Shown here in pieces: positions 50 through 35,963 of a stretch of 35,963 bases of DNA. The notes under the pieces are model-generated. The model searched no databases, had not been told where the DNA came from, and saw only the letters and a list, made by a program, of their open reading frames with translations. Each line of letters opens with the position of its first letter. Position 1 is the stretch's first letter. The DNA comes from a virus. The stretch is from the UHGV virus genome UHGV-0041739. One strand, given 5' to 3'. Position numbers and translations under genes: made by a program.

Positions 50-595
50 TTAGTGGCTTTGCGCTATAAGATCGTCTGGCGATAGTCGGGTCACCATCAT
101 AACTAACTCTCTGTCTAAACCTCTATCCAGCATCTCCTGAGCAATACGCAGGGCTTCTTCGCGTTTGCCCAGAATTAATCCATCATTCCGCCCTTCTTCA
201 CGTAATCTGTCAGCAATGGTCATCAGTTTCTCCTTTTCTTGTGGTGCGCGTTCTGCTATCTCACCAATAAATGCACGGAAACGCTGGGCATCTCCCGTTT
301 GTAATACATAATTAAACAGGGCTTTTAGCTGTCTGTCATTAGTGTTCCCTGTAACTAGCAGCGAAACAATTTGGTCGACTAATCCCAACAGATCGCGCTG
401 ACGAATATGTTTCTGAATTAACTCCAACAGCGCCATTTTGCGGTGTTGCATAATCTCGTCATCCGGCACCACGGTAATATCCACCAACGGAAAAGCCGAT
501 GAATATATTTTACGGGCAATCGCAGGCTCAGCAAATTCATCAAGCCAGCAGAGTGAATAAGGATAAGGACTTCTGCAACCATGATAAAACAGCAT
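50..595 (-). CDS. Host flank: C-terminal portion of an Rpn/YhgA-like (PD-(D/E)XK, Transposase_31 family) protein, apparently truncated at its 5' end by the Mu-like insertion
   Basis: ORF begins 3 nt from the prophage end and the frame stays open into phage DNA. C-terminal pattern [16 protein letters not shown]...[18 protein letters not shown] resembles Rpn-family C-termini (from memory, no search). At 181 aa it is shorter than typical ~290 aa Rpn proteins. Confidence 0.4.
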
Positions 596-598
596 CGG

Positions 599-2312: not shown

Positions 2313-3249
2313 TCAGGCTTCTGGCGCATTACAGAAAAACCAGAACGGCGCAGATATTCCGGGAAAAGATACCTTCACCAAAAATATTGGGGCCTGTCGC
2401 GCATATAGCGCATGGCTGAATATTGGTGGCGATAGTCAGACCTGGACAACCGCACAATTCATTTCGTGGCTGGAGAGTCAGGGGGCATTTAACCATCCTT
2501 ACTGGATGTGCAAAGGCTCATGGGCTTATGCAAACAATAAGGTCATTACAGATACAGGTTGCGGAAATATTTGTCTTGCAGGTGCTGTGGTGGAAGTTAT
2601 TGGCACTCGCGGCGCAATGACCATACGCGTTACTACGCCGAGTACATCCAGCGGTGGCGGAATTACTAACGCTCAATTCACCTATATTAATCATGGTAAT
2701 GCTTATGCTCCTGGCTGGCGACGAGACTACAACACGAAAAACCAGCAGCCTGCATTTGCTTTAGGGCAAACAGGAAGCAGGGTTGCAAATGATAAAGCTG
2801 TTGGCTGGAACTGGAATAGCGGCATTTATGATGCAGATATCAGTGGCGCATCGACATTAATCCTCCACTTTAATATGAATGCGGGGAGTTGCCCTGCTGT
2901 ACAGTTCCGCGTGAATTACAGGAACGGCGGTATTTTTTATCGTTCAGCGCGTGATGGTTATGGATTTGAGGCTGACTGGTCAGAGTTTTACACCACGACC
3001 CGCAAACCCTCTGCGGGAGATGTTGGTGCATACACGCAGGCAGAATGTAACTCAAGGTTTATTACAGGTATTCGCCTTGGCGGTCTGTCATCTGTTCAGA
3101 CATGGAATGGTCCCGGCTGGTCTGACAGGTCAGGTTATGTCGTTACGGGTTCAGTTAACGGAAACCGTGATGAATTAATTGATACAACTCAGGCAAGGCC
3201 AATTCAGTATTGCATTAATGGAAGGTGGTATAACGCGGGGAGTATTTAA
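2280..3249 (+). CDS. S': S'v alternative tail-fibre variable cassette (silent; no own start, expressed only after G inversion fuses it to Sc)
   Basis: ORF-track entry 2110-3249 extends upstream into gin antisense; homology to S (IIQNLGLQETVNQASGALQKNQNGADIP) begins at the gix site. Gly/Asn/Thr-rich fibre-like composition. Confidence 0.7.
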
Positions 3250-3251
3250 TT

Positions 3252-3785
3252 ATGATGCACTTAAAAAACATTACTGCTGGCAACCCTAAAACAAAAGAGC
3301 AATACCAGCTAACGAAACAATTTAACATCAAATGGCTTTATACAGAGGATGGGAAAAACTGGTATGAGGAACAAAAGAACTTTCAGCCTGATACGTTGAA
3401 AATGGTCTATGACCACAACGACGTTATTATTTGTATTGAAAAGGATGTTTCAGCAATTAATCCAGAAGGCGCAAGCGTCGTTGAGGTTCCTGATATTACA
3501 GCAAATCGCCGGGCTGATATTTCGGGTAAATGGATGTTCAAAGATGGCGTAGTGATAAAGCGAACTTATACCGAGGAGGAACAGAGGCAGCAGGCAGAGA
3601 ATGAAAAGCAAAGCCTATTGCAACTTGTCAGGGATAAAACCCAGCTATGGGACTCACAGCTACGGCTGGGTATCATTTCCAACGAGAATAAACAAAAATT
3701 AACCGAGTGGATGCTCTATGCGCAGAAGGTCGAATCCACAGACACCTCCAGCCTGCCAGTAACGTTTCCAGAACAACCAGAATGA
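3252..3785 (+). CDS. U': U' tail fibre assembly chaperone (alternative)
   Basis: Paralog of U ([24 protein letters not shown] vs [24 protein letters not shown]); follows S'v directly. Confidence 0.85.
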   Translation: MMHLKNITAGNPKTKEQYQLTKQFNIKWLYTEDGKNWYEEQKNFQPDTLKMVYDHNDVIICIEKDVSAINPEGASVVEVPDITANRRADISGKWMFKDGVVIKRTYTEEEQRQQAENEKQSLLQLVRDKTQLWDSQLRLGIISNENKQKLTEWMLYAQKVESTDTSSLPVTFPEQPE

Positions 3786-3787
3786 AA

Positions 3788-3812
3788 CAAGGCCCGCTAT
3801 CGGGCCTTAATT
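3788..3812. terminator. Bidirectional intrinsic terminator between convergent U and U'
   Basis: GGCCCG-CTAT-CGGGCC hairpin (3791-3806) flanked by T-rich tracts on both strands. Confidence 0.6.
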
Positions 3813-3813
3813 T

Positions 3814-4341
3814 TTATTCAGGCTTTTGTGGCCATTCAGGATTTGCCGTATCCACACGGCTGACCAGAACGCTGTAGCGTTCCCATGCTTCCAGTCGTGT
3901 GCGTTCCTCGTCTGTTGCCATATTCAGCCTGACAGCGCGTTCCAGCGGCTGGATGACTGATTCAGCTTCGGAAATCAACGCGGCCTTTTGTGATTCGGCC
4001 TGTTGTTGCTGTTCGTCAGCCGTATAAATCCGCTTAATCACAGCACCATCCTTAAACATCCATTTACCTGAGTCATCAGCACGTCGGTTGGCGGTAATAT
4101 CAGGAACCTCGACAACGCTAAAACCTTCAGGGTTAAGCGTGGAGGCATCTTTGGTGATGGCGACAATAATATTATTTTCGTCGTATACAATCTTTATGGT
4201 GTCGTCCTGAAAGTTATTTACTTCCTCATACCAGTTTTTACCGTCTTCTGTATATAACCAGATAACATCAAAATTCTTTGTTAGCTGACATTGCTCTTTT
4301 GTTTTTGGATTTCCTGACTTAATATTTTTTAAATGCTGCAT
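3814..4341 (-). CDS. U: U tail fibre assembly chaperone
   Basis: 175 aa, immediately downstream of S; paralogous to U'. Confidence 0.85.
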
Positions 4342-4344
4342 AAT

Positions 4345-5847
4345 TTACACCTGTGCGACGTTATACCATGTGCCATTGATGTATTTTTGTATTGGTCTGA
4401 AGATGGCTTCATCATCGCCATCTACTTCACCAATGATTCTTAATCCGGTAATTGCGTGTCCGGCTTTTTCATAACGACCACCACGCGCCATCAATTGAAC
4501 AACACGCGTACCCAGGCGAACATCTTTCACATAACGGGAATCAAAGTTACCGTAATCCGAGGGGTTAACACGCCCTGTAATATTTATGGTTTTATTACTT
4601 TGAATGCTGCCGGAGACAAAGCGCATAACATGGACGTTATTAGCATAAACGTCCAGATTACCGTCGCCATTTTGTTTAAAGCCCGTGTCATTATCACCCA
4701 AAACAATCGAGTTACCGCCAAGAGCACTGGATGTTCCGATACCCAGTGCACCATTCAATTGACCACCAGATAATGACAACGCCCCAACATCAGCAGCAGT
4801 CGGTTTTATGTGCGAACTGTAAATTACATATACAGTCCCATCTGTCAGGCCTGTCGGTTTATTCGCTGTATAAGTTGGTGATGTATGAATTTGTACAGTG
4901 GCATCCTTTGTATAATCCCACTGGATATTAACACCCGTGGCGTAATTACCTATTTCTACATAAATGTCATAGGTATCACCGGATGTATTCACCCATGCAA
5001 AATTAGTAAATCCAACCGAGGTCCGTCGCCATAATGCACCAGTAATACCCTTTGGATTTCCATTTCCGGCACGCAGAACCAGCTCAGAGATGCCTGCTTG
5101 CTGCGGGGAGCCAACGTTATACCCTGCACCACCAATCAGGCTTATGTAAACCACGGAACTGGCTTGTGGCATTGTTACAGTTGCCAGTTTGAACCATCCT
5201 GCACCACCATTAAAAGACATGGTTGTTGAATTTGTTGCTCCAATATTGCGCAGGAATAATCTTTTATCAGGAATATCTGCGCCATTCTGGTTTTTCTGCA
5301 ACGCACCAGAAGCCTGATTTACCGTTTCCTGTAAACCGAGGTTTTGGATAAACAGCGGCTTATTGGGAATATCTGCTCCGTTCCGGTCTTTTGCCAGACG
5401 GGCATTGGCATTATCCATCGCAATTTTCACCGCTTTTGCGGTGGCTGCCAGCGTTTCACTGGGGCTGTCAGTGGCACTGGTTAGCTGAACGAGTCCTTTT
5501 TTGTTCAGGCTGGCATCATAGATATCCAGATTTTCACGTGCTGTACGCTGTGCTGATGCCCCGGCAATTTTAATTTCGCTGAGGTTATTTTTTATCAGCA
5601 GCGCGTTATTGCTCATAATGGATTTAATGGACAGTGCAAGCTGGTTTAATTTTGTTTTATCCGGTTGAATACCGGCTTCTTCCAGCGTGTTTAATAACTC
5701 CGCCTGCACAATATTAAACCAGTCCATGCCGGGCCATGTGATAACATTATTCCCGTCACCTTCTGAAAACCAGCGAACGATAGCACTACGCTGGGCGGAT
5801 ACGGGCGGCATGACGGTTACGCCGCTGTCGTTATCAATATAAAACAT
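4345..5847 (-). CDS. S: S tail fibre protein (Sc constant N-terminal ~165 aa plus Sv variable part inside the G segment)
   Basis: 500 aa; gix site lies within the coding sequence at residues ~165-178 (LFIQNLGLQETVNQ); Gly/Asn/Thr-rich C-terminal fibre region. Confidence 0.88.
   Translation of the reverse strand: MFYIDNDSGVTVMPPVSAQRSAIVRWFSEGDGNNVITWPGMDWFNIVQAELLNTLEEAGIQPDKTKLNQLALSIKSIMSNNALLIKNNLSEIKIAGASAQRTARENLDIYDASLNKKGLVQLTSATDSPSETLAATAKAVKIAMDNANARLAKDRNGADIPNKPLFIQNLGLQETVNQASGALQKNQNGADIPDKRLFLRNIGATNSTTMSFNGGAGWFKLATVTMPQASSVVYISLIGGAGYNVGSPQQAGISELVLRAGNGNPKGITGALWRRTSVGFTNFAWVNTSGDTYDIYVEIGNYATGVNIQWDYTKDATVQIHTSPTYTANKPTGLTDGTVYVIYSSHIKPTAADVGALSLSGGQLNGALGIGTSSALGGNSIVLGDNDTGFKQNGDGNLDVYANNVHVMRFVSGSIQSNKTINITGRVNPSDYGNFDSRYVKDVRLGTRVVQLMARGGRYEKAGHAITGLRIIGEVDGDDEAIFRPIQKYINGTWYNVAQV
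5317..5350. repeat. gix recombination site (S-proximal), inverted copy
   Basis: GTTTCCTGTAAACCGAGGTTTTGGATAA, reverse complement of the 2279-2306 site. Confidence 0.8.
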
Positions 5848-6389
5848 TAGTTATCTCCGTCATGGTAAACAAATTTATAAATCTGATGCGCGGGTTTATA
5901 TTTCTCCAGTAAACATTCCAGCGCACCCGATTCATAAACACGTAACGGCGTCAGAACATTATCCAGCACCGTTGCGTTGCGATAATTTTTAATACCGTAA
6001 ATATTGACCTGCGTAACCCACTGGCCTTCTGTGGAATCCGTCAGCCTGACGGTAAAACCGTACTGCGCAGCCAGCCATTCATAAAAGCGCCTACTCAGAT
6101 TGCCGGTCATACGCATTTTATTTGCGGCAGCCCGCTGGCGTTCTGACAGGGTGCCGTTTTCGCTGGTACAGTCCGGCAACCCCAGAAATGATTCCCACTC
6201 ACCCAGATACCAGCGGGATGTGGACGGGAAACGCTCCCGCAGCATTTGCCGCGCATCATCCGCCGCAGTGGCAATCACGTCGCTGATGGCCTGCGCCAGC
6301 GCAGATAATTTGCTGTCGGGGCTTTTATTCCAGGCAAGCCCTGACGGCAGTAATTGCAGAAAGGCCGTCTGATAGGGTGTTACAGCCAT
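5847..6389 (-). CDS. Baseplate/tail protein (Mu gp48-like, DUF2313-type)
   Basis: Position between the J-like baseplate gene and S; start/stop overlap with neighbours. Confidence 0.6.
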   Translation of the reverse strand: MAVTPYQTAFLQLLPSGLAWNKSPDSKLSALAQAISDVIATAADDARQMLRERFPSTSRWYLGEWESFLGLPDCTSENGTLSERQRAAANKMRMTGNLSRRFYEWLAAQYGFTVRLTDSTEGQWVTQVNIYGIKNYRNATVLDNVLTPLRVYESGALECLLEKYKPAHQIYKFVYHDGDN

Positions 6390-22792: not shown

Positions 22793-24447
22793 TACCAGCC
22801 CCCTCGTTCAAACTGGTGATAATCATCAAAATCATCGTTATCAACATCATCACCACGGTGGCGTGGTGGCAGCGCCTGTATGCTGTCCTCGTCGATAACA
22901 AAACCATTCATATAAGACGCCCTGACAGCCATACAGAGCGCCACGGCAAAGTCGCCATGTCGTCGGCCTTTACCGCCTTCATCTTTTGTGCGCCCCTTAT
23001 CAATCTGCGGAATACCTTTGTCCACCTTGATGTGGAGCAGGTCATCAAGTGTGGTCTGGTGCCGGGCAATCGTGATGTTCTGCGCTTCAAACTCGCCTTT
23101 CAGTTTTGGCATCCACTCCTGATACCAGGATGCGGTCAGATTCACACAGTCGATCATCTCCGGGCCATAAATCAGACGGGCGGCTTCTGCCAGATAACCG
23201 CCGTTACCGGTGGCATCAAATGCAGCGCCGGTAAAACGGGGCAAACGGGACAGAATGAATAAAAGGATTTGTCGCTGCTGGTCATAGGTCACATTACGCA
23301 GCTCCACGCGGAAACATTCGCGTTTGCGTAAGTCTGGAGTGATGGCAAGCGGCACAAACACCGTCAGGTCGCCACGGCGTGCAAAGTCTTCGCCCAGTAC
23401 GTGTTTATTGAGCGGTGACAGCGCATCGAGCAACGGGAGCAGCTCCTGTTCACACCAGTCCTGAACGATACCGTGGCGCATCTGCGGTGTCAGCGATTCA
23501 AAATCGTCCGGGGCTTCAAAACGCAGAACCGGGATATCCCGCGCGGGTGTCATGGCAGCTTCAATCAGGACACGGGACAGGTAAGCGCCACCGGATTTTT
23601 TGGGAATACAGCCGTATTCCTCGTCGGCGCTCTCTTTGTTCGGCGCGTTCCGGTACAGGCCATCACGCCAGGCTTTCTCCGCTTCCGGTGACCACGGCTG
23701 ATTCGTAACATAACAGATACGCCGGTACAGCCCGTCAGCGATGGCATCGTCCAGCGTGATACGGTGAACGCTGTAATCCTTGCGCCCCTCGCGTGCATCC
23801 TGAATGTACTGGTTAAACAGGTTATCGACGCCGTTATGTGTCGATATGATCCGCACGCGGGCACCCCACATGGTGAGCGCAAAGGCCGCTTTCAGGAGTT
23901 CGTCCAGGGCTTCATGAAATGCCGCTTCATCAATCACCACATCCCCCTGTAAACCACGCAGGTTAGACGGGCGGCTTGAAAGCGCCTGCACCTTAAATCC
24001 ACTATTCGGAAAGCGGATCATGTAGGTGAGGATTTCTTCTTTTTTGTCGCTGTCCCAGAAGGTCTGCTCCCAGACGTCAGCCTTTGCCAGCTGGTTAAAG
24101 GCGCGGGCAAACAGGGCACAGGCGGCGATGTATTCCAGCGCCATTTCCTGACGGGAACCCACATAAAAGACGTTGCGACCACCACGGCGACGCGGCTTTG
24201 CGGCCGTCATGACATTGCGGCCCGCTTCGGCCCATGTCAGACCGGTACGACGGGATTTTTCAGCAATGCAAATCTGGCTTTCATCCTCAAACCAGCGGCG
24301 CTGATAGCCCAGAAAAACCGGTTCATTGCGGGGCTGTGCTTCCCCGATATCGGTCACGATATTCACGCCAAGCAGTTCGGCTTCCTTACGCAGGTCGATT
24401 TTGCGGGGCGCATGAAGGGCTTTAAGTTTGCTTTCTTTGGTGCTCAC
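22792..24447 (-). CDS. Terminase large subunit (Mu gp28-like)
   Basis: 551 aa; GTG start; position upstream of portal. Confidence 0.85.
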   Translation of the reverse strand: MSTKESKLKALHAPRKIDLRKEAELLGVNIVTDIGEAQPRNEPVFLGYQRRWFEDESQICIAEKSRRTGLTWAEAGRNVMTAAKPRRRGGRNVFYVGSRQEMALEYIAACALFARAFNQLAKADVWEQTFWDSDKKEEILTYMIRFPNSGFKVQALSSRPSNLRGLQGDVVIDEAAFHEALDELLKAAFALTMWGARVRIISTHNGVDNLFNQYIQDAREGRKDYSVHRITLDDAIADGLYRRICYVTNQPWSPEAEKAWRDGLYRNAPNKESADEEYGCIPKKSGGAYLSRVLIEAAMTPARDIPVLRFEAPDDFESLTPQMRHGIVQDWCEQELLPLLDALSPLNKHVLGEDFARRGDLTVFVPLAITPDLRKRECFRVELRNVTYDQQRQILLFILSRLPRFTGAAFDATGNGGYLAEAARLIYGPEMIDCVNLTASWYQEWMPKLKGEFEAQNITIARHQTTLDDLLHIKVDKGIPQIDKGRTKDEGGKGRRHGDFAVALCMAVRASYMNGFVIDEDSIQALPPRHRGDDVDNDDFDDYHQFERGGW

Positions 24448-24501
24448 AGGTGAAAAATCCGGTATAAATTTTCAGGCTTTAATCAGTAAAAAGAGGTTGC
24501 T

Positions 24502-24687
24502 ATGAAAGAAAAGCTGACCATTGACCAAAAAATTGAGATTGCAAAAATAGCAAGTGACTTTGTTATCGCTGGCATGAATACGAATAAACAGCCAGCGTGT
24601 CTTGCCGGTTCTGATCAAAATGTGAAGTCAGAACGGGAGTTGTTAAAACATATTTATCAGTTGCTGGAGGCAATGATTACTGATTAA
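24502..24687 (+). CDS. Small plus-strand ORF (61 aa), AT-rich, antisense to the late operon; candidate moron
   Basis: AAGAGG Shine-Dalgarno 6 nt before ATG; TATAAAT -10-like element ~35 nt upstream; visibly lower GC than flanks; no recognisable family. Confidence 0.4.
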   Translation: MKEKLTIDQKIEIAKIASDFVIAGMNTNKQPACLAGSDQNVKSERELLKHIYQLLEAMITD

Positions 24688-24871
24688 TTTGTGACTCTCT
24701 GATGATCTGGCCCGCGATACGCGGGCCAACCACAATCTGCATTAACAGATACAGTGATTCGGCTTTTGTGACGATATGAATATTGCCCTCCTCAGCCAGC
24801 GCCGCTTCGACGATGGGTTTGAGTTTCAGGGCAATTTCCGCAGACGTTTTTTCTTTGGTTTCAACAGCCAT
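24677..24871 (-). CDS. Small hypothetical protein (64 aa) between the gp27-like gene and terminase
   Basis: AAAGGAG SD ~9 nt upstream of ATG (MAVETKEK...); 3' end overlaps the plus-strand ORF by 11 bp; contains GGCCCGCG-ATA-CGCGGGCC hairpin (24709-24727). Confidence 0.45.
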   Translation of the reverse strand: MAVETKEKTSAEIALKLKPIVEAALAEEGNIHIVTKAESLYLLMQIVVGPRIAGQIIRESQINQ

Positions 24872-24884
24872 TACATTTTCTCCT

Positions 24885-25463
24885 TTACGCTTTCCCCAGC
24901 AGCACATCACGGATACGCTGCTCCAGTTCTTCGCTGATGCCATCCTGCCCGCGCAGTTCTTCGCTGACAGCGTTTGCCGCTTCTTCTGCGAATGCCTGGC
25001 GGATCTCTTTCTCGCGCCGGTGGCTGGACATTGCTGTGGATTCCAGACGCTGTGCCGCCAGCATGGCGTTTTTCAGCAGTTCAATATCCACGTCATCTTC
25101 CGGTTTTTCGATTTGCCGCATCATGGCTTTAAAAAGCTGGCTGCGGGCCATTTCCAGAATCAGCTTTGTGGTTTCCCCCATTGGCTTGTCGCCAAGTTCT
25201 GCGGTCAGTGCTGACGTCATTTCACGCATCTGTCGCAGGTTATGGCCTACCTGTTCGACGTTTGTCGCGTAACGGTTCAGGCCGGAACGGGAGAGTTTCA
25301 TGTCATCAGGCAGTCCGGCATCTTCAATCAGGGCGTTAATTTCTTCCAGAATGCGGGCCTGTGGGATTGCCTTGTCACGCAGCATTTCATGCAGTGTTTT
25401 GCGCACGTTTTCCGGCAGCAAATCCACTTTTGAAGCCCGTCCCCGTGTTTTCCTGTCCATCAT
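24885..25463 (-). CDS. Mu gp27-like protein (DUF3486; putative DNA-binding packaging protein / small-terminase candidate)
   Basis: 192 aa, N-terminus ...RGRASKVDLLPENVRKTL typical of DUF3486; position upstream of large terminase. Confidence 0.7.
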   Translation of the reverse strand: MMDRKTRGRASKVDLLPENVRKTLHEMLRDKAIPQARILEEINALIEDAGLPDDMKLSRSGLNRYATNVEQVGHNLRQMREMTSALTAELGDKPMGETTKLILEMARSQLFKAMMRQIEKPEDDVDIELLKNAMLAAQRLESTAMSSHRREKEIRQAFAEEAANAVSEELRGQDGISEELEQRIRDVLLGKA

Positions 25464-25762: not shown

Positions 25763-26058
25763 TTGTTGTTCTCTCCGAGCGCCTTTTCGAGCAAAAGCTC
25801 CAGTTGATGGGTCAGCACCTGTATGTGCCGGTTCATCGCTTTCACTTCACCATTGGTTTCTGCGGTTTGTAACCGGACAGCATGTAAATCCTGTGCACTG
25901 GGCATGTTTTCGCACTTCGTTTCAAGCGCGGTTAAACGGCTTTCGATTTGCTCCACACGTTCCGTACTGGCAAATGTACGCCTCACCGCCCACCACAAAA
26001 TGCCACCAATGGTGCTGCCACTGCCTATCGAGTAGGTCAGCACTGAATAAATATCCAC
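25759..26058 (-). CDS. Lysis-associated membrane protein (N-terminal TM plus coiled coil; spanin- or releasin-like)
   Basis: 99 aa with hydrophobic segment SVLTYSIGSGSTIGGILWWAV followed by heptad-like region; immediately downstream of lys. Confidence 0.5.
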   Translation of the reverse strand: MDIYSVLTYSIGSGSTIGGILWWAVRRTFASTERVEQIESRLTALETKCENMPSAQDLHAVRLQTAETNGEVKAMNRHIQVLTHQLELLLEKALGENNK

Positions 26059-26070
26059 ACGCTCTCCTGT

Positions 26071-26499
26071 TTACAGCCCTGACGACATACCCGGCATTAA
26101 TCCCGGCACCGGTAACACATCATCATTCAGCAGCTGATTATTACGGGGAGCGGGCACAGCACCAGAACCGGCGCTGAACATAAACACCGCCAGTGCATTT
26201 TTTTGCTCCTCTGTCAGTGGCCTGTTCAGATGGGTATTTAACGTGTCATAAACAGGCTTCAAATCTGCTTTCAACAGCATGATGCATTCACCATAGCTGT
26301 AAGGGCGTTGCTGAATATCAGGACCGTGATGGTTAAGGCAAACAGTCAGTTCGCCGTGCTGATCTGTGTATGGAAGGTACTGAACAGAAGCCAGCGATGA
26401 ATCACCATCGCCGGACAACTGCCAGCCACCACATGCCGCCAGTACCACGATGGCAAGCGTTCTGATGATGCGGGGGAGACGTTTTTTAAAATCGTTCAT
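26071..26499 (-). CDS. lys: SAR-endolysin homolog (GH24/T4-lysozyme-like fold) with N-terminal signal-anchor
   Basis: N-terminal KKRLPRIIRTLAIVVLAACGG SAR-like segment; catalytic-region motif YLPYTDQHGELTVCLNHHG parallels R21/T4L (Y.D..G..T.G.GH); position after C as in Mu. Confidence 0.7.
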   Translation of the reverse strand: MNDFKKRLPRIIRTLAIVVLAACGGWQLSGDGDSSLASVQYLPYTDQHGELTVCLNHHGPDIQQRPYSYGECIMLLKADLKPVYDTLNTHLNRPLTEEQKNALAVFMFSAGSGAVPAPRNNQLLNDDVLPVPGLMPGMSSGL

Positions 26500-26503
26500 G
26501 AAA

Positions 26504-26528
26504 CCCTCCTTCGGTAATAAAAGGAGGG
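26504..26528 (-). promoter_or_regulatory. Hairpin sequestering the lys Shine-Dalgarno (CCCTCCTT / AAGGAGGG), within the Plys leader
   Basis: Perfect 8-bp stem with 9-nt loop; downstream arm contains AGGAGG located 5 nt before the lys ATG. Confidence 0.45.
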
Positions 26529-26570
26529 TAACTCAGGGGAATTTGCAGACGGGGTTATTATTAATTAACA

Positions 26571-26590
26571 CAACCGGCCTGCACCGGTTG
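26571..26590 (-). terminator. Candidate terminator-like hairpin after C (end of middle transcript)
   Basis: CAACCGG-TGCAGG-CCGGTTG stem-loop followed by a moderately U-rich tract on the minus strand. Confidence 0.3.
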
Positions 26591-26601
26591 ATTGCTGTTA
26601 C

Positions 26602-27012
26602 TCAGAATAAATCGGGCTGATGTCGCCGTGAATGAAGTTTTCTCTGCCGGGCAATAATCTTGTAAATCTGCGGTTGTGACAGACGATGTTCACGCCGCAG
26701 CTCCTCTATGTTCCGACCGTTAAACTGGCAGTAAATCAGATCATCCCGCAACGCTGCCAGAAGTGCATCACCCCGGGGGATGTAATACTGCCGCCCCCCC
26801 AGGAACCATGATAAGGACATCACCTGTTTACGGGCTATGCTCCGTGCATCATCCACGCCCTGACGTTTCAGTTCTGTTTCCAGAACGTCAACCAGCTCAA
26901 CCAGCGCGCGGGGCCAGCGGGCCTCCTGCTCAGGAGCCGGTATATTGTCGATATGATCCATTAACTGGCTTACAGCCGGATCATGTTCAAATAAATCCTG
27001 CTGATTTGTCAT
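26602..27012 (-). CDS. C: Late-gene transcriptional activator C (Mor/C family)
   Basis: 136 aa, paralog of Mor with C-terminal HTH (QPQIYKIIARQRK); last gene of the middle operon, directly upstream of lys. Confidence 0.85.
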   Translation of the reverse strand: MTNQQDLFEHDPAVSQLMDHIDNIPAPEQEARWPRALVELVDVLETELKRQGVDDARSIARKQVMSLSWFLGGRQYYIPRGDALLAALRDDLIYCQFNGRNIEELRREHRLSQPQIYKIIARQRKLHSRRHQPDLF

Positions 27013-27022
27013 TTTGCCCCCA

Positions 27023-27148
27023 TCAGCGAAAAACTAACAGACAGATCCCCGTGACTACGGCAAGCAGTGCAATAACTGTGATACCCTTCATCACCATCAG
27101 CAACGTAGCCATGCCGGAACATTCATTACTGAATCTTCTGTACATCAT
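27023..27148 (-). CDS. Small single-TM membrane protein (Mu gp20-like, lysis-associated)
   Basis: From internal start MMYRRF...; hydrophobic ITVIALLAVVTGICLLVF; overlaps the end of the holin-like gene. Confidence 0.3.
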   Translation of the reverse strand: MMYRRFSNECSGMATLLMVMKGITVIALLAVVTGICLLVFR

Positions 27149-27525
27149 GCCTCCGCGCCAGACGGTACTGAACGTCGCAGACAGATATGGAGGCGAAAGC
27201 AAAACCATATGCTACAGAAGCCAGATAAAGCATAAATCGTGAACTGATGCGCTTCTTCTAAAAGCCCGGTTGCAATAGCCGAAAGACTTAACCCGACGAG
27301 GCCACCAAGAAAATCAATGGCATTAATAGAAGCATAACGTCGGATTTTTCCTGTCCGGGACAGATCATCAAAAATAGTGCCGGTAAAGCACAGCGCCACA
27401 CTGAAAACGGCAGCATTCCAGAACAGCAGCGCCCGCAAACCATAAAACAAGCTGATAATCAGAATCAGCGCCAGCAACATGACCGGCAGACAATTTGGTA
27501 ACAAATAACAGAAACGCTTAAACAT
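27145..27525 (-). CDS. Multi-pass membrane protein, holin-like (Mu gp19-like)
   Basis: 126 aa with three hydrophobic helices; in the middle operon between the GH108 gene and C. Confidence 0.55.
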   Translation of the reverse strand: MFKRFCYLLPNCLPVMLLALILIISLFYGLRALLFWNAAVFSVALCFTGTIFDDLSRTGKIRRYASINAIDFLGGLVGLSLSAIATGLLEEAHQFTIYALSGFCSIWFCFRLHICLRRSVPSGAEA

Positions 27526-27736
27526 GATGCTTTTCCCTGTAACGCTGGCAGTGGTGAATAATTTCTGGCATATCGACTGACTGCCAGCCTTTCATGTAAT
27601 AGCTCCCGTGGGTGCCATCGTGCCCTGTGTAATCCATTGGCTTTGGTGGTGGACCTCCGGCCTCCCGATGCAACACCTCCTGTCGTAAACGTTCGCGTCT
27701 GCCAAACCGAAAGGACGCATCCCACCCTTTACCCAT
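27518..27736 (-). CDS. Small hypothetical protein (72 aa or shorter)
   Basis: ORF bridging the GH108 and holin-like genes; His/Arg-rich; start uncertain. Confidence 0.3.
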   Translation of the reverse strand: MGKGWDASFRFGRRERLRQEVLHREAGGPPPKPMDYTGHDGTHGSYYMKGWQSVDMPEIIHHCQRYREKHHV

Positions 27737-28289
27737 GCAGAACCTCCCGGCAGGCGCTGGCGAGCAGATCCAGACGGTTAAACCAGCCGTTCAGATATTT
27801 CCCCTGCGAGGCACTGGATTTGATAATCCCTGCGTAATAGCGGGAACGACGCAGGAAACACTGCAACAGCAGCCAGTCAGTATCGGCACGCAGTACGGCT
27901 GCGCGAGTGTTTTTGCCGACGATGCCATCATCATCAACACCTGCTGCCGCCTGGAGGATTTGAATTGCGCGTTTAACACCGTGCTGAACGGCAGCATCAA
28001 AGACGAATAAGGAAACACCATCAGGCCATTCGTTACACTTTGCCGCCAGCCAGTAATCACGCCAGTAGATTTGCGCCGCCTGCTCGTGGGTTAAATCTTT
28101 AATACGGGTATCAGGCTTCCCGTCACCGTTAACATCGGTTTTGCCATCAATAACGCCGTCGCGACGGTCAGAAATGCCGTATTTGGTTTCGCCGCCACGG
28201 TCAGTGGGATCATTAACGTAACCACCTTCAACATCAGGCCGTATAACAAAATTCAGCGAATGAAGGAATGCAGGGGAAAACTCAGGCAT
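27729..28289 (-). CDS. Peptidoglycan hydrolase-like protein, GH108 N-terminal domain plus PG_binding_3 C-terminal domain
   Basis: Motif VEGGYVNDPTDRGGETKYGIS matches the GH108 signature (EGGY.NDP.D.GG.T.YGI); C-terminal ...FVFDAAVQHGVKRAIQILQAAAGVDDDGIVGKNTRAAV resembles PG_binding_3. Likely start ATG at 28289 with AGGAGGG SD. Confidence 0.7.
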   Translation of the reverse strand: MPEFSPAFLHSLNFVIRPDVEGGYVNDPTDRGGETKYGISDRRDGVIDGKTDVNGDGKPDTRIKDLTHEQAAQIYWRDYWLAAKCNEWPDGVSLFVFDAAVQHGVKRAIQILQAAAGVDDDGIVGKNTRAAVLRADTDWLLLQCFLRRSRYYAGIIKSSASQGKYLNGWFNRLDLLASACREVLHG

Positions 28290-28336
28290 GTTGCCCTCCT
28301 GTAATGAACGTTTTATCGTCACAACAGAATATTGAG

Positions 28337-28365
28337 GGCGTAAAAAAAGCCGGATTAACCGGCTT
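28337..28365 (-). terminator. Intrinsic terminator after mor (end of early transcript); middle promoter Pm expected in this gap
   Basis: Minus strand AAAGCCGG-TTAAT-CCGGCTTT followed by TTTTTTT; located between the mor stop and the GH108 gene start. Confidence 0.6.
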
Positions 28366-28371
28366 TACTGT

Positions 28372-28761
28372 TTAAAACAGAGGGGGTTGATACTGACGAT
28401 ACTTTATACGCCGCATTCGTCGGATGGCTTTATAGACAGTGTTAAACGTCACACCATAACGAATTGCCAGTTCGTGAACATTGCGCCCGTTAAAATCATT
28501 CCAGATTCGTAAATCCCGAACCAGTGAATCCAGCACCTGCCCACGAGGAATATAGACCTGACCACCGCCAAGATGTTTACAGATAGCCACAACAATCTCC
28601 AGAGAGTGCGCAGGTTCAACGCCCAGCCGGGACAGTTCCTGACGCAGCACATCGTTCAGTTCCGCCAGCAGTGCCGGAAATCGTGACGTATCCCCGGATT
28701 CATTGTCAAGATGAGCCAGGATACTGTCATCCTGAAAGTCGCCAAACAAATCCTGCGTCAT
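28372..28761 (-). CDS. mor: Middle operon regulator Mor (transcriptional activator of Pm)
   Basis: 129 aa, MTQDLFGDFQDDSILAHLDN...RLGVEPAHSLEIVVAICKHLGGGQVYIPRG; Mor/C family; follows gemA as in Mu. Confidence 0.9.
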   Translation of the reverse strand: MTQDLFGDFQDDSILAHLDNESGDTSRFPALLAELNDVLRQELSRLGVEPAHSLEIVVAICKHLGGGQVYIPRGQVLDSLVRDLRIWNDFNGRNVHELAIRYGVTFNTVYKAIRRMRRIKYRQYQPPLF

Positions 28762-29324
28762 TGTGCCAGTCTCCGTGTTTTTCTTGCACGGGCATAAGCT
28801 GCTGTCATGGCATCATAGCCACGCAGTTCACGCCCGGACGGGCTGACCGGCAACGGGAGCCCATAATGGGAAAAGGCTTCACGGATACAGCGGATGTGCC
28901 ACTGTTTCAGGGTTTCAAGCACAATTTGTAACGATTCTCCGTGACACCACGCCAGCGTGGAAACACCCTGTCCGCCATTACGTCTGGCTGTCAGTCGTTC
29001 GACGTATTTATCCAGTGCTGTATCACTGCCATCGGCAATAAAACCGTCTTCTGCCATTTGCTGCCAGATTTTTAATACCTTTTCGTGGGGCGTTACATGC
29101 CCATTAAAGCGACGGCGTGGGTGTTTATTCTGCTTCTTAAAACCGCGTTCTTTCATGGCATCGAGCACCAGCTCCAGTTGCGCGACGGTCAGCTCACGGC
29201 AACTGATTTTGCCCGTGTTCTGCATCAGAAAGGCACGGTAGGTGTCGTCGTCGAGTTGTAGCTCCCGACGGGCGACATGGATTAATTTAATAAGCGATGT
29301 GCGATTCACTTGCTCACCTCTCAT
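28758..29324 (-). CDS. gemA: GemA-like host gene expression modulator (Mu gp16)
   Basis: Likely start at MRGEQVNRTSLIK (29324); the ORF-track extension to 29477 is probably not translated; overlaps the mor start. Confidence 0.75.
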   Translation of the reverse strand: MRGEQVNRTSLIKLIHVARRELQLDDDTYRAFLMQNTGKISCRELTVAQLELVLDAMKERGFKKQNKHPRRRFNGHVTPHEKVLKIWQQMAEDGFIADGSDTALDKYVERLTARRNGGQGVSTLAWCHGESLQIVLETLKQWHIRCIREAFSHYGLPLPVSPSGRELRGYDAMTAAYARARKTRRLAQ

Positions 29325-29339
29325 ATTAAGGAATGAGAT

Positions 29340-29756
29340 ATGAAAATTGATTATGACGAGATAGCCAGAATATTTGATGTATTCCTGGAGGCCGACACTG
29401 CATTCATTCGACTGGAAGATGTCGGCTGGGATCGTTCTCAGCGGCACAGCGACAGCCATCAGAAGCTGGTTTTCCATCTTCTGTTGCTGGTTGAAAATGG
29501 TTTTATCAGCAACAGATATCTGGAAACAGGCACCGCAAAAAGCATTGGTCTCACCCCGACAAGCCTCGGATATTCATATTCAGGCACCAGTGTCAGACTC
29601 ACACAAGATGGTCATGATTTTGCGAAAGCACTACATCAAAAACCCATTCTTGAGCGTATAAAACAGGAGCTTGCCGACGCCCCGATGACGCTCGTAACAG
29701 ACGTCGGCAAACAGTGGTTAACCTCGTTTCTTAAAAAGAAACTCGGGATTGAATAG
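29340..29756 (+). CDS. Plus-strand accessory ORF (138 aa), DUF2513-like winged-helix protein; candidate moron embedded antisense in the early operon
   Basis: AAGGAA SD 8 nt before ATG; start 15 bp from the gemA start (divergent); 3' end overlaps the neighbouring minus gene; ...TQDGHDFAKALHQKPILERIKQEL resembles the DUF2513 pattern (from memory). Confidence 0.55.
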   Translation: MKIDYDEIARIFDVFLEADTAFIRLEDVGWDRSQRHSDSHQKLVFHLLLLVENGFISNRYLETGTAKSIGLTPTSLGYSYSGTSVRLTQDGHDFAKALHQKPILERIKQELADAPMTLVTDVGKQWLTSFLKKKLGIE

Positions 29757-30029
29757 TTCCCGGTTCATACGTTGCAGCACATCAAGGGCGGCGACAGCCG
29801 CCACTTTATCGTTGCCATCAGCAATAGTGCGGAGATTTTCAATAATCCAGTGAGGACTCAGTGACTCAGCAACAATGCCCAGTCGGTACGCCATGACCTC
29901 ATCAATAGCCTGTTCGTAAGACGGGGCATATACAAAGGCCACAAAGTCGTTGACCTCGTTTTCCGGTAAACCACCGGCAATCAGCAGGGCTGTAAGTTCT
30001 TCTGATTTTGTAAATACGCCATTATTCAT
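29718..30029 (-). CDS. Early semi-essential region protein (hypothetical)
   Basis: Likely start MNNGVFTKSEEL; protein-like composition; in the early operon. Confidence 0.5.
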   Translation of the reverse strand: MNNGVFTKSEELTALLIAGGLPENEVNDFVAFVYAPSYEQAIDEVMAYRLGIVAESLSPHWIIENLRTIADGNDKVAAVAALDVLQRMNRELFNPEFLFKKRG

Positions 30030-30180
30030 TCTGTTCACCTTCACAATTCATGCACGCCGTGTCATCGCCCATATCGCAGTGGTTGCATTTCTGTCCGCCA
30101 CAATGGGGACACTCTTTCAGATATTCAGGTGCTTCATTACCGCAGGTCGGGCATTCCTGCTTTTCGTTTACGTTATTCAT
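30022..30180 (-). CDS. Small zinc-ribbon protein (4x CxxC)
   Basis: MNNVNEKQECPTCGNEAPEYLKECPHCGGQKCNHCDMGDDTACMNCEGEQNE; GAGGAAG SD ~10 nt upstream of ATG. Confidence 0.5.
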   Translation of the reverse strand: MNNVNEKQECPTCGNEAPEYLKECPHCGGQKCNHCDMGDDTACMNCEGEQNE

Positions 30181-30409
30181 TTCGTAATACTTCCTCGCAA
30201 TAAAAAATCTCATTGGGATAACGTTTTTGTACATGTTCCATCACCTGCCTGCATATCTGCTCCGTGGGCCAGATTCTTTCCGTTACAGGTATGGCATCGC
30301 AGGCATCATTCCCGCAGGTGCTAACCAGCAGGACAAAGCCAATTGACTTAATCACTATTTGCCTCCATATGTTCCAGACGCTGTGCTTCGCGCATACACA
30401 TCTGCGCAA
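30173..30409 (-). CDS. Early hypothetical protein (Cys-rich), boundaries uncertain
   Basis: 78-aa ORF overlapping the upstream ORF by ~60 bp; may start at a later codon. Confidence 0.3.
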   Translation of the reverse strand: MRRCVCAKHSVWNIWRQIVIKSIGFVLLVSTCGNDACDAIPVTERIWPTEQICRQVMEHVQKRYPNEIFYCEEVLRNE

Positions 30410-30584
30410 TCATCATCTGGCGGGCAATGCCTGCACGAATAAACGAAGCTGCACGACGGAGATTTTTTGCATTCGCCTGTTGAATCAATGCAGGTACTGA
30501 TGCCAGGCATTCGGCGCTGTCTTTAATCAACACCTCCGCTGTTATTTCCGGTGCTTGTTGCTTATTCCTCGTCATCTTCGTCAT
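30348..30584 (-). CDS. Early hypothetical protein (78 aa)
   Basis: Basic/helical small protein in the early operon. Confidence 0.4.
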   Translation of the reverse strand: MTKMTRNKQQAPEITAEVLIKDSAECLASVPALIQQANAKNLRRAASFIRAGIARQMMIAQMCMREAQRLEHMEANSD

Positions 30585-30870
30585 CCTTTACATTCAGCGT
30601 TACAGGAAATTTTTCGAATATGAAAAGGGCAAGCCTTGCCCCAAGTCTCAGAAGGTTTGCTTCCTTTGAATGTGCAGGGATAACACATTTCTCACCGTCA
30701 TTGTCGAAGGTAATATCCGCATCTTTTTTATCGATAAAAAAACGACATTCATCCACGCGTGCTTTATGCCATGCACATAAAGAGACAATGCATTCTTTCA
30801 TTTCCTGATTCGTCATAAATATCACCATTTCAGATTCAGGCGCGAGCAATTCCCTGACGCATCGCGCCAT
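30562..30870 (-). CDS. Early hypothetical protein with acidic C-terminal tail (KDDEDDEE)
   Basis: ORF downstream of gam; strongly acidic terminus. Confidence 0.45.
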   Translation of the reverse strand: MARCVRELLAPESEMVIFMTNQEMKECIVSLCAWHKARVDECRFFIDKKDADITFDNDGEKCVIPAHSKEANLLRLGARLALFIFEKFPVTLNVKDDEDDEE

Positions 30871-33915: not shown

Positions 33916-35913
33916 TTAAATGGCTTTTTTACGTCTGTTCTGTTCCAGAATATCCAGCGAATGATTCAGATATTCATCACGCTCAGTTTCGTATTCATCA
34001 TCACGCTCCTGATTCTTCACTCGTTCCGTATTACCGGAAGGCCGGAAAATGCCGACAATTTGTGATTCTGGTGCTTCAGGTTCGGCTATCTGCGGCAGCA
34101 GCTCTGCCACTTCCAGTGCATCCATTTGTTTCTGTGCCTTAATCGCTGCTTTCGTAGCAGATTTCAGTTGTTTCTGGCGGCGGCGATATTCACGGCCTGC
34201 CGCAGCATCATTAAACGCAACAGGTGCCAGACATTCCGCTTCACAGATAAACCGACCGTCAAGGGTGTAGCAATAAACCGTGCTGTGTAACTGCTGTGGA
34301 TCAAATCTGACCACAACTTTTTTTACTCCGGCATTCATTAACGCCATGTTGTAATAAACGTTTTTCGCACCTTTAAGGGAGCCACCAACTTTAAGCGCGA
34401 ACTCGCCTTTACGTGAAACGTTCACTGCCTCGGCAGGCAGTAACAGCATCCGTTTTTGCTCTTCGGTAGGCTTACGCACAATCGTTCTGGCGTATTCACG
34501 CTCAAAAACGTCATCAAACGAAAGTTTGCCTCCGCACATTTCTGTTTCACGGCCTGTTCTGGCATTGAACATCGCCACACCTTCGGCAAGGGTTTTCAGA
34601 AACAGCTCTGCATCAACAGCGCGGTCGCCATAGTTATCAGGTTTTGCCTGCGGATTAGGCCCCGTATATGCGCCAGCCAGTGCCGGATGCTTATCAACGT
34701 ATTCCTCAAGCCCACCAACACCGAAAGCACGTTCAACAGGTTTTGCCTGGCCCCAGCCTTTACCGGCAACAACGCTTGTCCAGTGCATTTTCGCCCCCAT
34801 CAGTAAAAACAGTCCTTTTGGATCGTCCTCTTTTACCTTAAAGCGGTAGCGATTGGGCGCGCCTCCCGTCAGCCATTTATTCGCAGCACCACGGGTGTTA
34901 TCAATGGTGATGTGAAAATCCTCCGGGATACCGTAGCGAGTCACAACATCCATGAACGAGAGGCGAATTGAATCAATGTTCTCGCTCACATCGCAGCGCC
35001 AGCCCAGAATTTTTCGGGTTTTCACATCCTGCCAGAACCATGTTTTCGGACGGATCACATCACCGTTAAACCAGCGTACAAAGACGTTATGCAGATAACC
35101 GTCGCCGTTGATCCACTGCATGGCGTCCAGGTGTTCCACAGTTCGCTGCTGTGCCGGTATCAGATGCATCAGTGCATGTTCACCTTCACGGCAGGCAACA
35201 ACCATTGCCTCGTCCAGTTGCTGAATCCGGCGAAAGGCCGTGGCACGGGAGGGAATACTCCAGCCATGCTCGCGGGCTGCCAGTTCCAGACGCTCATAAC
35301 ATTTGCGGAAGGCGGGTTTTTCCGGTCGCAGATAATCTGCAATCAGAAACTGCCAGGCATCCTCGTCAAATTCACTTTTGTGAACGTTGCGACGGGATGC
35401 ACCACGTCCATCAACAAGCGCAGCCGCCCAGTCAGGCTTCGCAAACTTCTGTACCTGGTAATACTTGTCCCGCAAAGTGGATGCGCTGACCTGGTAATGC
35501 CCTGCAACGGTCGCAAAAGCCGTTTTTGTTGAAATCCCCTGGTTCAGCATTTCGTCTGCAGCCTGAACCGCAGGCAACCATTTTTCAGCAAGTCTGCGCT
35601 GGGAATCGCTGGCGTTATCCCATTTGCTCCACAGTGCCTCACGATCATAATCATGGGCTTCCAGCGTGGGGCGGGCGATTTCAAAATACCCCTGGCTTGT
35701 TTCTATTTGCTCAGATTTTAATAACAACTCAGCACGTGCTGCCGCTGGTAGAACTGATATATGAAATTCCAAAGCCTTTGAACCCGTACGCTTGCGACGT
35801 AGTTCTGGATGATTGGCTGCAAGCTTTTCAAGATTGCGGCGAATACTCACCTCATGTTTAGGAAAGCATGACATTCCTACGCATTCTTGCGCTGTTACCC
35901 AATGGGTTAACAT
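33916..35913 (-). CDS. A: MuA DDE transposase
   Basis: Residues from ~[44 protein letters not shown] to C-terminal ...[11 protein letters not shown] match Mu A as recalled; N-terminal ~75 aa diverge. Likely start ATG at 35913 (GGAG SD) rather than the TTG at 35943. Confidence 0.92.
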
Positions 35914-35963
35914 GATGTTTTCTCCATATACCGAGAAGGCCAAATCTGGGCTGGTTCCATATC
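35907..35963 (-). CDS. ner: Ner-like early regulator, 3' terminal fragment (5' end beyond window)
   Basis: Window-edge frame encodes ...[17 protein letters not shown], sharing IWPSRY with the Mu Ner C-terminus; overlaps the A start. Confidence 0.6.

Follow-up and report, generated by a model that had tools for sequence, protein, structure and literature searches.

Bacteriophages Mu and D108 provide the textbook case of a repressor and a transposase that have a DNA-binding domain in common and compete for the same operator/enhancer. The N-terminal homology of the two proteins has been noted for both phages (Harshey 1985 and Mizuuchi 1986, according to the citing statement in PMC3820752), and the N-terminal I-alpha domain of the transposase binds the transpositional enhancer, which overlaps the operators O1-O3 (PMC3362531, PMC3145075); the linker region of MuA, residues 65-89, tolerates insertions (PMC3362531). 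Mosaic immunity modules are already known in the relatives of Mu: the c repressor and Ner of the D108 type were described as a heteroimmune alternative in the paper on SfMu (PMC4406740), and PhiR68_1 (PV340575) carries a third Muvirus cassette. Here, we consider the immunity region of a Mu-like prophage that occupies the minus strand of a viral genome of 35,963 nucleotides (UHGV-0041739; this whole stretch is hereafter called the window). The reverse complement of the window is 100% identical to the chromosome of Escherichia coli SE11 (NC_011415.1), a genome that has long been public, and no published description of the cassette or of the immunity region of the SE11 Mu-like prophage was found in the literature searched. 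To judge from the comparisons reported below, the SE11 prophage carries a rare, fourth type of cassette that is neither that of Mu nor that of D108. A phage so near to Mu that keeps I-alpha but has a repressor head of the XRE type separates, on a Mu-like background, the two features that the textbook case unites. Import of a complete cassette, comprising c, the operators, ner and I-alpha and working in the way proposed below, is very probably the best explanation of this arrangement.

The window contains the complete Mu-family prophage without its first 1,286 bases. The repressor and the operators lie beyond the window edge and were read from the matching RefSeq record (L001), with the coordinates converted as window position = 39964 − L001 position.

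The replaced cassette

The transposase gene A (33916-35913, minus strand, ATG at 35913) encodes a MuA-type protein of 665 residues, the two parts of which differ sharply in kinship. Residues 70-665 are 99.0-99.8% identical to the transposases of Mu, D108, SfMu and PhiR68_1 (for this backbone, 99.3% to Mu and 99.8% to D108), whereas residues 1-69 show only 28.4% identity to Mu, 34.4% to D108, 37.5% to SfMu and 29.9% to PhiR68_1. The divergent part, codons 1-69 (35707-35913, minus), corresponds by its Pfam and Protein Data Bank (PDB) matches to I-alpha, the winged helix that binds enhancer and operator, and makes up the right-hand part of the immunity cassette; the rest of the gene (33916-35706, minus) encodes I-beta, I-gamma, the DDE core and domain III, with matches to the Pfam families HTH_Tnp_Mu_2, DDE_2 and Mu-transpos_C. 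In the alignments, the recombination junction falls on the codons of Ile70-Glu-Thr-Ser (35695-35706, minus) in the linker between I-alpha and I-beta, and from this point on (Mu residue 68) all Muvirus immunity types are about 99% identical. At the DNA level, the identity to Mu and D108 as detected by megablast leaps from none to 98.7% at 35706/35707. The first-pass annotation of the window had held that about the first 75 residues of A differ from Mu and that the match begins near residue 77. The Mu sequence that it quoted (MELWVSPKECANLPGLPKTSAGVIYVAKKQGW...) agrees with NC_000929, and pairwise alignment of A, Ner and c with Mu and D108 indeed reveals an N-terminal domain, with the sequence as quoted, that is not identical to that of Mu A, as well as a near-identical C-terminal part; the switch, however, occurs earlier than had been stated, at Ile70.

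The 257-274 nt past the junction have no match among 50,697 phage records (blastn, word size 11), and a search of 35690-35963 against all phage records at this word size yielded no known phage donor. Since two E. coli chromosomes carry the same 274 nt with 100% identity, each at an insertion site of its own, these nucleotides are neither a product of chance nor an assembly artefact. At the protein level, residues 1-78 of A, taken alone, match Pfam PF02316 (HTH_Tnp_Mu_1, where HTH stands for helix-turn-helix) with 29.2 bits (cut-off 23.3, E=1.3e-6), and residues 4-78 match the structure of MuA I-alpha in the PDB (1TNS, E=2.8e-7), which argues that the N-terminus of A is a genuine, albeit very divergent, I-alpha winged helix. 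The ratio of nonsynonymous to synonymous substitution rates (dN/dS) of the SE11 I-alpha against its nearest relative, locus L007, is 0.06, so that the domain appears to be under purifying selection. Together with the invariable linkage of the domain with the control region, this selection lends indirect support to the view that the SE11 I-alpha would bind the enhancer/operator region of its own phage.

The ner gene sits between the control region and A and runs past the window edge: codons 58-75 and the TAA stop lie at 35907-35963 (minus), and the full gene at L001 3830-4057. The full protein (75 residues) matches Pfam PF13693 (HTH_35, the Ner family) with 89 bits (E=1.9e-25), its identity to the Ner proteins of Mu, D108, SfMu and PhiR68_1 being 38-42%. 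In the part within the window, little but P..IWPSRY agrees with Mu and D108 Ner; the first-pass annotation had noticed IWPSRY. At the ner/A junction (35907-35925, minus), the Shine-Dalgarno sequence GGAG (35925-35922) precedes the ATG of A (35913-35911), and the two genes overlap by 7 nt, ATGTTAA, including the ner stop (in the RefSeq annotation of L001, ner occupies 3830-4057 and A 4051-6048), whereas Mu has a 1-nt gap at this place. The same overlap is found in L007 and suggests translational coupling of ner and A. The two genes abut or overlap in all lineages other than L022, where they are separated by 530 bp (2094-2622) with an opposite-strand open reading frame (ORF) of 153 codons without a Pfam match.

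The whole replaced block measures about 1.06 kb (L001 ~3200-4260; phage coordinates ~490-1547), of which window 35707-35963 is the right-hand 257 nt. In the identity profile of the left 2.2 kb of the phage against Mu (50-nt bins), phage positions 1-350 (attL) are 96-100% identical, positions 351-450 (the 3' end of c) 80-84%, positions 451-1550 only 28-56%, and everything from 1551 onward again 96-100%. Thus, as in the cassettes of Mu and D108, a divergent block is set between near-identical flanks, bounded on the left by a junction within c and on the right by one in the I-alpha/I-beta linker of A, at the very position where Mu, D108, SfMu and PhiR68_1 converge. The cassette comprises the repressor, the 169-bp control region, its own Ner, and the I-alpha domain of A. 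Accordingly, the swap of c, ner and the 5' end of A as one immunity module, which the first-pass annotation had proposed, is borne out by sharp junctions on both sides.

The same gene order is found in Mu (NC_000929 1-1530), with c transcribed leftward and ner-A-B rightward from an intergenic control region of ~170-235 bp, with Ner in HTH_35 and the A I-alpha in PF02316, and with an identical attL. In D108 and SfMu (NC_013594, NC_027382), c, ner and the first ~66-69 codons of A are likewise replaced relative to Mu, and the right junction is at the same IETS linker; the left end of D108, however, diverges from Mu, whereas the attL of the SE11 phage is like that of Mu and PhiR68_1. The cassette of PhiR68_1 has the same junctions as that of SE11, and its I-alpha and Ner are 30% and 42% identical to those of SE11, respectively.

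The repressor gene c (L001 3052-3660 in the RefSeq record, outside the window) encodes 202 residues that make up an XRE-type HTH head (residues ~20-80), a centre homologous to Mu Rep, and a Mu/PhiR68_1-like tail that ends in VKKAV. Residues 35-78 match Pfam PF01381 (HTH_3, XRE type) with 30.9 bits (cut-off 23), and the PF02316 profile is matched weakly, in its C-terminal half only. Residues 1-147 are 70% identical to the c protein of L007 (E=3e-76), and residues 105-202 are 53-56% identical to c of Mu and PhiR68_1 (E=4e-26 and 8e-34; 53% for Mu, including the VKKAV end, and 56% for PhiR68_1). PhiR68_1 is the closest to SE11 in the repressor tail and also in the 3' DNA of c (86-94% at phage 351-450). 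In contrast to SE11, the repressor heads of Mu and PhiR68_1 are winged helices, and those of D108 and PhiR68_1 are 55% and 65% identical to the respective I-alpha domains. When residues 1-100 of A were compared with the repressor of the same phage by BLASTP, the E values were 7e-14 for Mu, 2e-19 for D108 and 4e-26 for PhiR68_1, whereas SE11 gave no meaningful match (best E=0.34, over 12 residues in the repressor tail). Hence, because the XRE-type head takes the place of the Mu DNA-binding domain, the homology between the repressor DNA-binding domain and the transposase N-terminus is absent from the SE11 cassette. The repressors of the Pseudomonas transposable phages D3112 and B3 are not known to be related to Mu c or paralogous to the transposase N-terminus, and these phages differ from Mu in genus and genome backbone; in SE11, by comparison, the replaced head is fused to a repressor body of the Mu type. 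In RefSeq, the genes of the cassette currently bear only the name 'helix-turn-helix domain-containing protein'.

Control region and proposed working

The 169-bp spacer between c and ner holds a perfect 11-N12-11 inverted repeat, AAAAATGCGCA-N12-TGCGCATTTTT (L001 3722-3755), which brackets the -35 element of TTGAAA-17-TATCGT, the sole sigma-70-like site found and the putative early promoter (Pe), directed towards ner. A repeat of this architecture is the top-scoring inverted repeat in six of eight lineages, where it lies ~107 nt upstream of the ner ATG around a -35-like hexamer, and it is also present in five further loci (L011/L012, L028, L029, L030). The arms of the palindrome co-vary with the recognition helix of the repressor: S-D/E-G goes with GCGCA, S-D-T with GCGAA, and S-E-A with GCGTA or CGTG. 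A second palindrome, AAAAATGC-N5-GCATTTTT (8-N5-8; L001 3619-3639), is located in codons 8-14 of c (K-N-A-E-R-I-F), with its centre ~109 bp from that of the first; in six of the seven other lineages (L007, L009, L013, L022, L023, L024), the equivalent codons also contain a palindrome, with arms that follow the Pe arms of the lineage in question. A downstream start of c, which would leave the inner palindrome outside the ORF, was rejected, since a Shine-Dalgarno sequence precedes the annotated ATG in all eight lineages and no later start is conserved. The inner operator-like site is, therefore, embedded in coding sequence, and the constraint on the peptide K-N-A-E-R-I-F may come from DNA binding no less than from protein function. 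With at most one mismatch allowed, three half-sites fall into 137 bp; the rest of the 8.3 kb searched contains none, and the 36-kb window one. Thus, candidate palindromic operators, conserved in position and with arms that co-vary with the repressor, overlap a promoter-like site, as would be expected if they serve an XRE-type repressor. These putative operators, palindromes of AAAAATGC(GCA) half-sites, set SE11 apart from Mu.

The early leader contains repeats of the CGGTAnCCG type, which are conserved wherever Ner is conserved, even when the arms of the palindromes differ; since these repeats track Ner rather than the palindrome arms, they are assigned, provisionally, to Ner. A scan of the left end with Rfam for an RNA element gave only sub-threshold chance matches (STnc40, SurA).

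On these grounds, the following working of the cassette can be envisaged. The XRE-headed repressor would bind the AAAAATGC(GCA) half-sites both at the Pe palindrome and at the palindrome in c codons 8-14, would thereby shut off transcription of ner-A-B and, while on both palindromes, would oligomerise through its Mu-like body, in a layout that recalls O1/O2 of Mu. Ner would bind the repeats in the early leader, and the I-alpha domain of A would recognise enhancer sites in the same 170-230 bp; a location of these sites within the control region would explain why every exchange of the operators takes I-alpha along. Since its repressor head and operators are unrelated, a phage with this cassette is predicted to be heteroimmune to Mu, D108/SfMu and PhiR68_1, while its transposase would continue to fit the enhancer of the same phage.

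A bolder suggestion, which we offer tentatively and consider rather doubtful, is that one set of AAAAATGC(GCA) half-sites in a single operator/enhancer may be recognised by two unrelated folds, the XRE HTH of the repressor and the winged helix of I-alpha. Were this true, the competition of repressor and transposase at the enhancer, in the style of Mu, would have been kept without the paralogy that is thought to underlie it, and the cassette would be a natural experiment on whether shared ancestry of both domains is needed for transposition immunity.

Conversely, I-alpha might be vestigial, decoupled from an immunity that is purely transcriptional and exerted by the XRE repressor, and be carried along just because the crossover happens at the linker. 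In assays without the enhancer, MuA indeed does not need I-alpha and may even become more active when the domain is removed (PMC3362531); furthermore, a k-mer search for a second, I-alpha-specific motif retrieved only the repressor-type half-site, A/T runs, and CGGTAACC repeats, with no separate enhancer motif. A vestigial domain, however, is hard to reconcile with purifying selection as strong as that reported above, or with the retention of a domain with the IRRxLE and RKRxGxKAxE[FY] motifs in most lineages examined, with A backbones of 52-74% identity; besides, not a single recombinant that splits I-alpha from its operators was seen among the ~93 E. coli copies classified by cassette. On balance, a decoupled I-alpha appears improbable.

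Several points weigh against the imported, self-contained cassette in the form proposed here. Whereas the sequence relationships, the junctions, the domain families, the conservation and co-variation of the operators, and the rarity of the type are observed, every assignment of a protein to a site in the cassette, as well as the immunity phenotype, is a prediction that comes from comparison of sequences, and the repressor and operators involved were taken from a record other than the window. Phylogeny is a confounder in the co-variation between half-sites and repressor helix: the I-alpha sequences partition the lineages identically, so that the half-sites could be sites of I-alpha, of the repressor, or of both. 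The two palindromes differ in geometry (11-N12-11 versus 8-N5-8), which a simple dimer model fails to explain. Neither a sigma-70 scan nor manual inspection turned up a convincing leftward Pc promoter. Mu carries a site with the perfect IHF consensus, WATCAANNNNTTR; between the palindromes of the lineages compared here, this consensus is found only with one mismatch and at varying positions, and four of the eight lineages have none, so that no consistent IHF site was found. Finally, no direct donor of the cassette came to light: outside the SE11 type, even the best relative is only 70-80% identical.

Origin of the cassette

The SE11 repressor belongs to a 90%-identity cluster of 342 member sequences, and a database search retrieved XRE-headed relatives from Escherichia, Shigella, Citrobacter and Yersinia that are 45-97% identical over the aligned part (34% in one case). 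Relatives P0001-P0015 and P0020 all bear a precomputed PF01381 match, and every retrieved context of an XRE-headed repressor adjoins a Ner of HTH_35 and a MuA with PF02316. Within this trio, Ner is ~90% identical to that of SE11, and the I-alpha domains form one subtype with the conserved pattern WVTxQEC...IRRxLE...RKRxGxKAxE[FY]. The prophages that carry the trio (L007, L009, L022-L025, L013; clusters P0004-P0015, P0020) thus have the repressor head, Ner and I-alpha subtype in common with SE11, and also the architecture and position of the operators, but in the transposase backbone they reach only 52-74% identity to Mu, and most of their repressors have a short tail that ends in KKAG or a similar lysine-rich end, without the LPxxxRKEILSKYG...VKKAV segment of SE11. 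A scan of species-representative genomes added few loci. SE11 appears, then, to be a form of this trio grafted onto a Mu backbone.

The grafting is apparent from the discordance between the parts of A: the I-alpha of SE11 is 80% identical to that of L007 and only 28-34% to those of Mu and D108, whereas its backbone is 74% identical to L007 and 99.3-99.8% to Mu and D108. Likewise, the synonymous sites of the backbone are nearly unchanged, whereas those of the cassette are saturated. The discordant phylogeny and the sharp borders argue for import by recombination rather than divergence in place. The cassette would have come from a more distant lineage of Mu-like phages, with one crossover within c, after the oligomerisation region, and the other in the flexible I-alpha/I-beta linker of A.

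In temperate phages, immunity regions are often under diversifying selection, and one might, therefore, think of fast diversification of a Mu or D108 immunity region by point mutation, the more so as Ner, I-alpha and the centre of the repressor are still homologous across all types. Point mutation, however, would not be expected to let the identity rise, at either border and across a single 50-nt bin, from below 56% to no less than 96%, to give the repressor head a different fold, to saturate the synonymous sites of the cassette next to a backbone in which they have hardly changed, or to make I-alpha, Ner and the repressor head 70-92% identical to those of phages with an A backbone of only 74%; with no intermediates between Mu-type and XRE heads and the phylogeny discordant, such an origin is very improbable.

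Still less credible is the immunity type of D108, or something close to it, to which the mosaic pattern, the right junction shared with D108 relative to Mu, and the identity of I-alpha to D108 (34%, marginally the highest of the E. coli phage types, with 37.5% for its close relative SfMu) might point: the identity is just 34% in I-alpha, 39% in Ner and 33% in the repressor, blastn detects no DNA match, attL agrees with Mu at 100% but with D108 at only 62-84% past the first 50 nt, and the repressor head belongs to HTH_3 rather than PF02316, whereas an accepted member of the type, SfMu, is 90-99% identical to D108. The label 'D108-like heteroimmune type' of the first-pass annotation is, thus, apt as an analogy, in that the right junction and the logic of the exchange are the same, and misplaced if it is taken to mean the module of D108 itself.

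The cassette offers, within a small (~1.06 kb) and defined unit with predicted operators, a system in which heteroimmunity, enhancer specificity, and the persistence of enhancer occlusion by the repressor after a swap of folds are testable. Knowledge of the cassette is useful for annotation and may help in the design of orthogonal mini-Mu tools. The finding would change the paradigm only if the two unrelated folds turn out to use common sites.

The prophage and its distribution

The prophage has both Mu ends and is flanked by a 5-bp target-site duplication, and copies of it are found at different chromosomal sites, which characterises it as an intact, transposable member of the Mu family. By comparison with Mu, its right end, the last Mu-homologous base, is at window 599 (minus); host DNA occupies 1-598, with the duplicated CCGAT at 594-598 (minus) and again at L001 2709-2713, next to the left end at L001 2714 in the RefSeq record. 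Over the compared 60 nt on the right and 30 nt on the left, the ends are identical to those of Mu. In E. coli N1286, a second copy with an almost identical left end is inserted in a different gene, so that the element must have transposed independently. The insertion in SE11 splits a gene for a recombination-promoting nuclease of the Rpn family beside hisP, and the copy in N1286 splits the gene for the IIC component of a phosphotransferase system (PTS) in the aga cluster.

In a census of 5,426 complete E. coli genomes, Mu-type prophages were called by a conserved segment of A at least 95% identical; this segment and each cassette were queried separately, so that the counts are not paired copy by copy. 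The A segment was found in 93 places in 83 genomes, with up to three prophages per genome. The D108/SfMu-type cassette is the commonest (45 places in 45 genomes), followed by the Mu type (32 places, 27 genomes) and the PhiR68_1 type (16 places, 15 genomes); the SE11 type, at two places in two genomes, is the rarest and the only one of the four with an XRE-headed repressor. Roughly, these four types, with their shared junctions, account for about all Mu-type copies in E. coli, and all four recombine at the same I-alpha/I-beta linker.

The prophage as a whole is 92-95% identical to Mu and D108, with several further blocks replaced. The semi-essential early block at 29309-30834 (minus) has no DNA match to Mu or D108 and encodes five small proteins of PHROG families 1988, 5584, 16556, 24376 and 12368, whose function is unknown; one of the five (30022-30234) is a 70-residue protein with four CxxC motifs. 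The adjoining gemA/mor segment (28324-29308) is ~85% identical. In the lysis and middle region, replacement relative to both phages affects 24447-24888, 25812-26603 and 27738-28323, and the segments 27395-27737 and 26604-27151 (C) are only 72-75% identical; here, the ORF at 27729-28322 (197 codons) matches the endolysin family phrog_315, and that at 26071-26499 weakly matches the endolysin family phrog_7. In 4400-5310 and 3200-4400, the variable part of the tail fibre at the border of the G segment is without a match to Mu or D108, and the G-segment region shows a weak inverted self-similarity of ~70%, as expected for the S/S' and U/U' genes.

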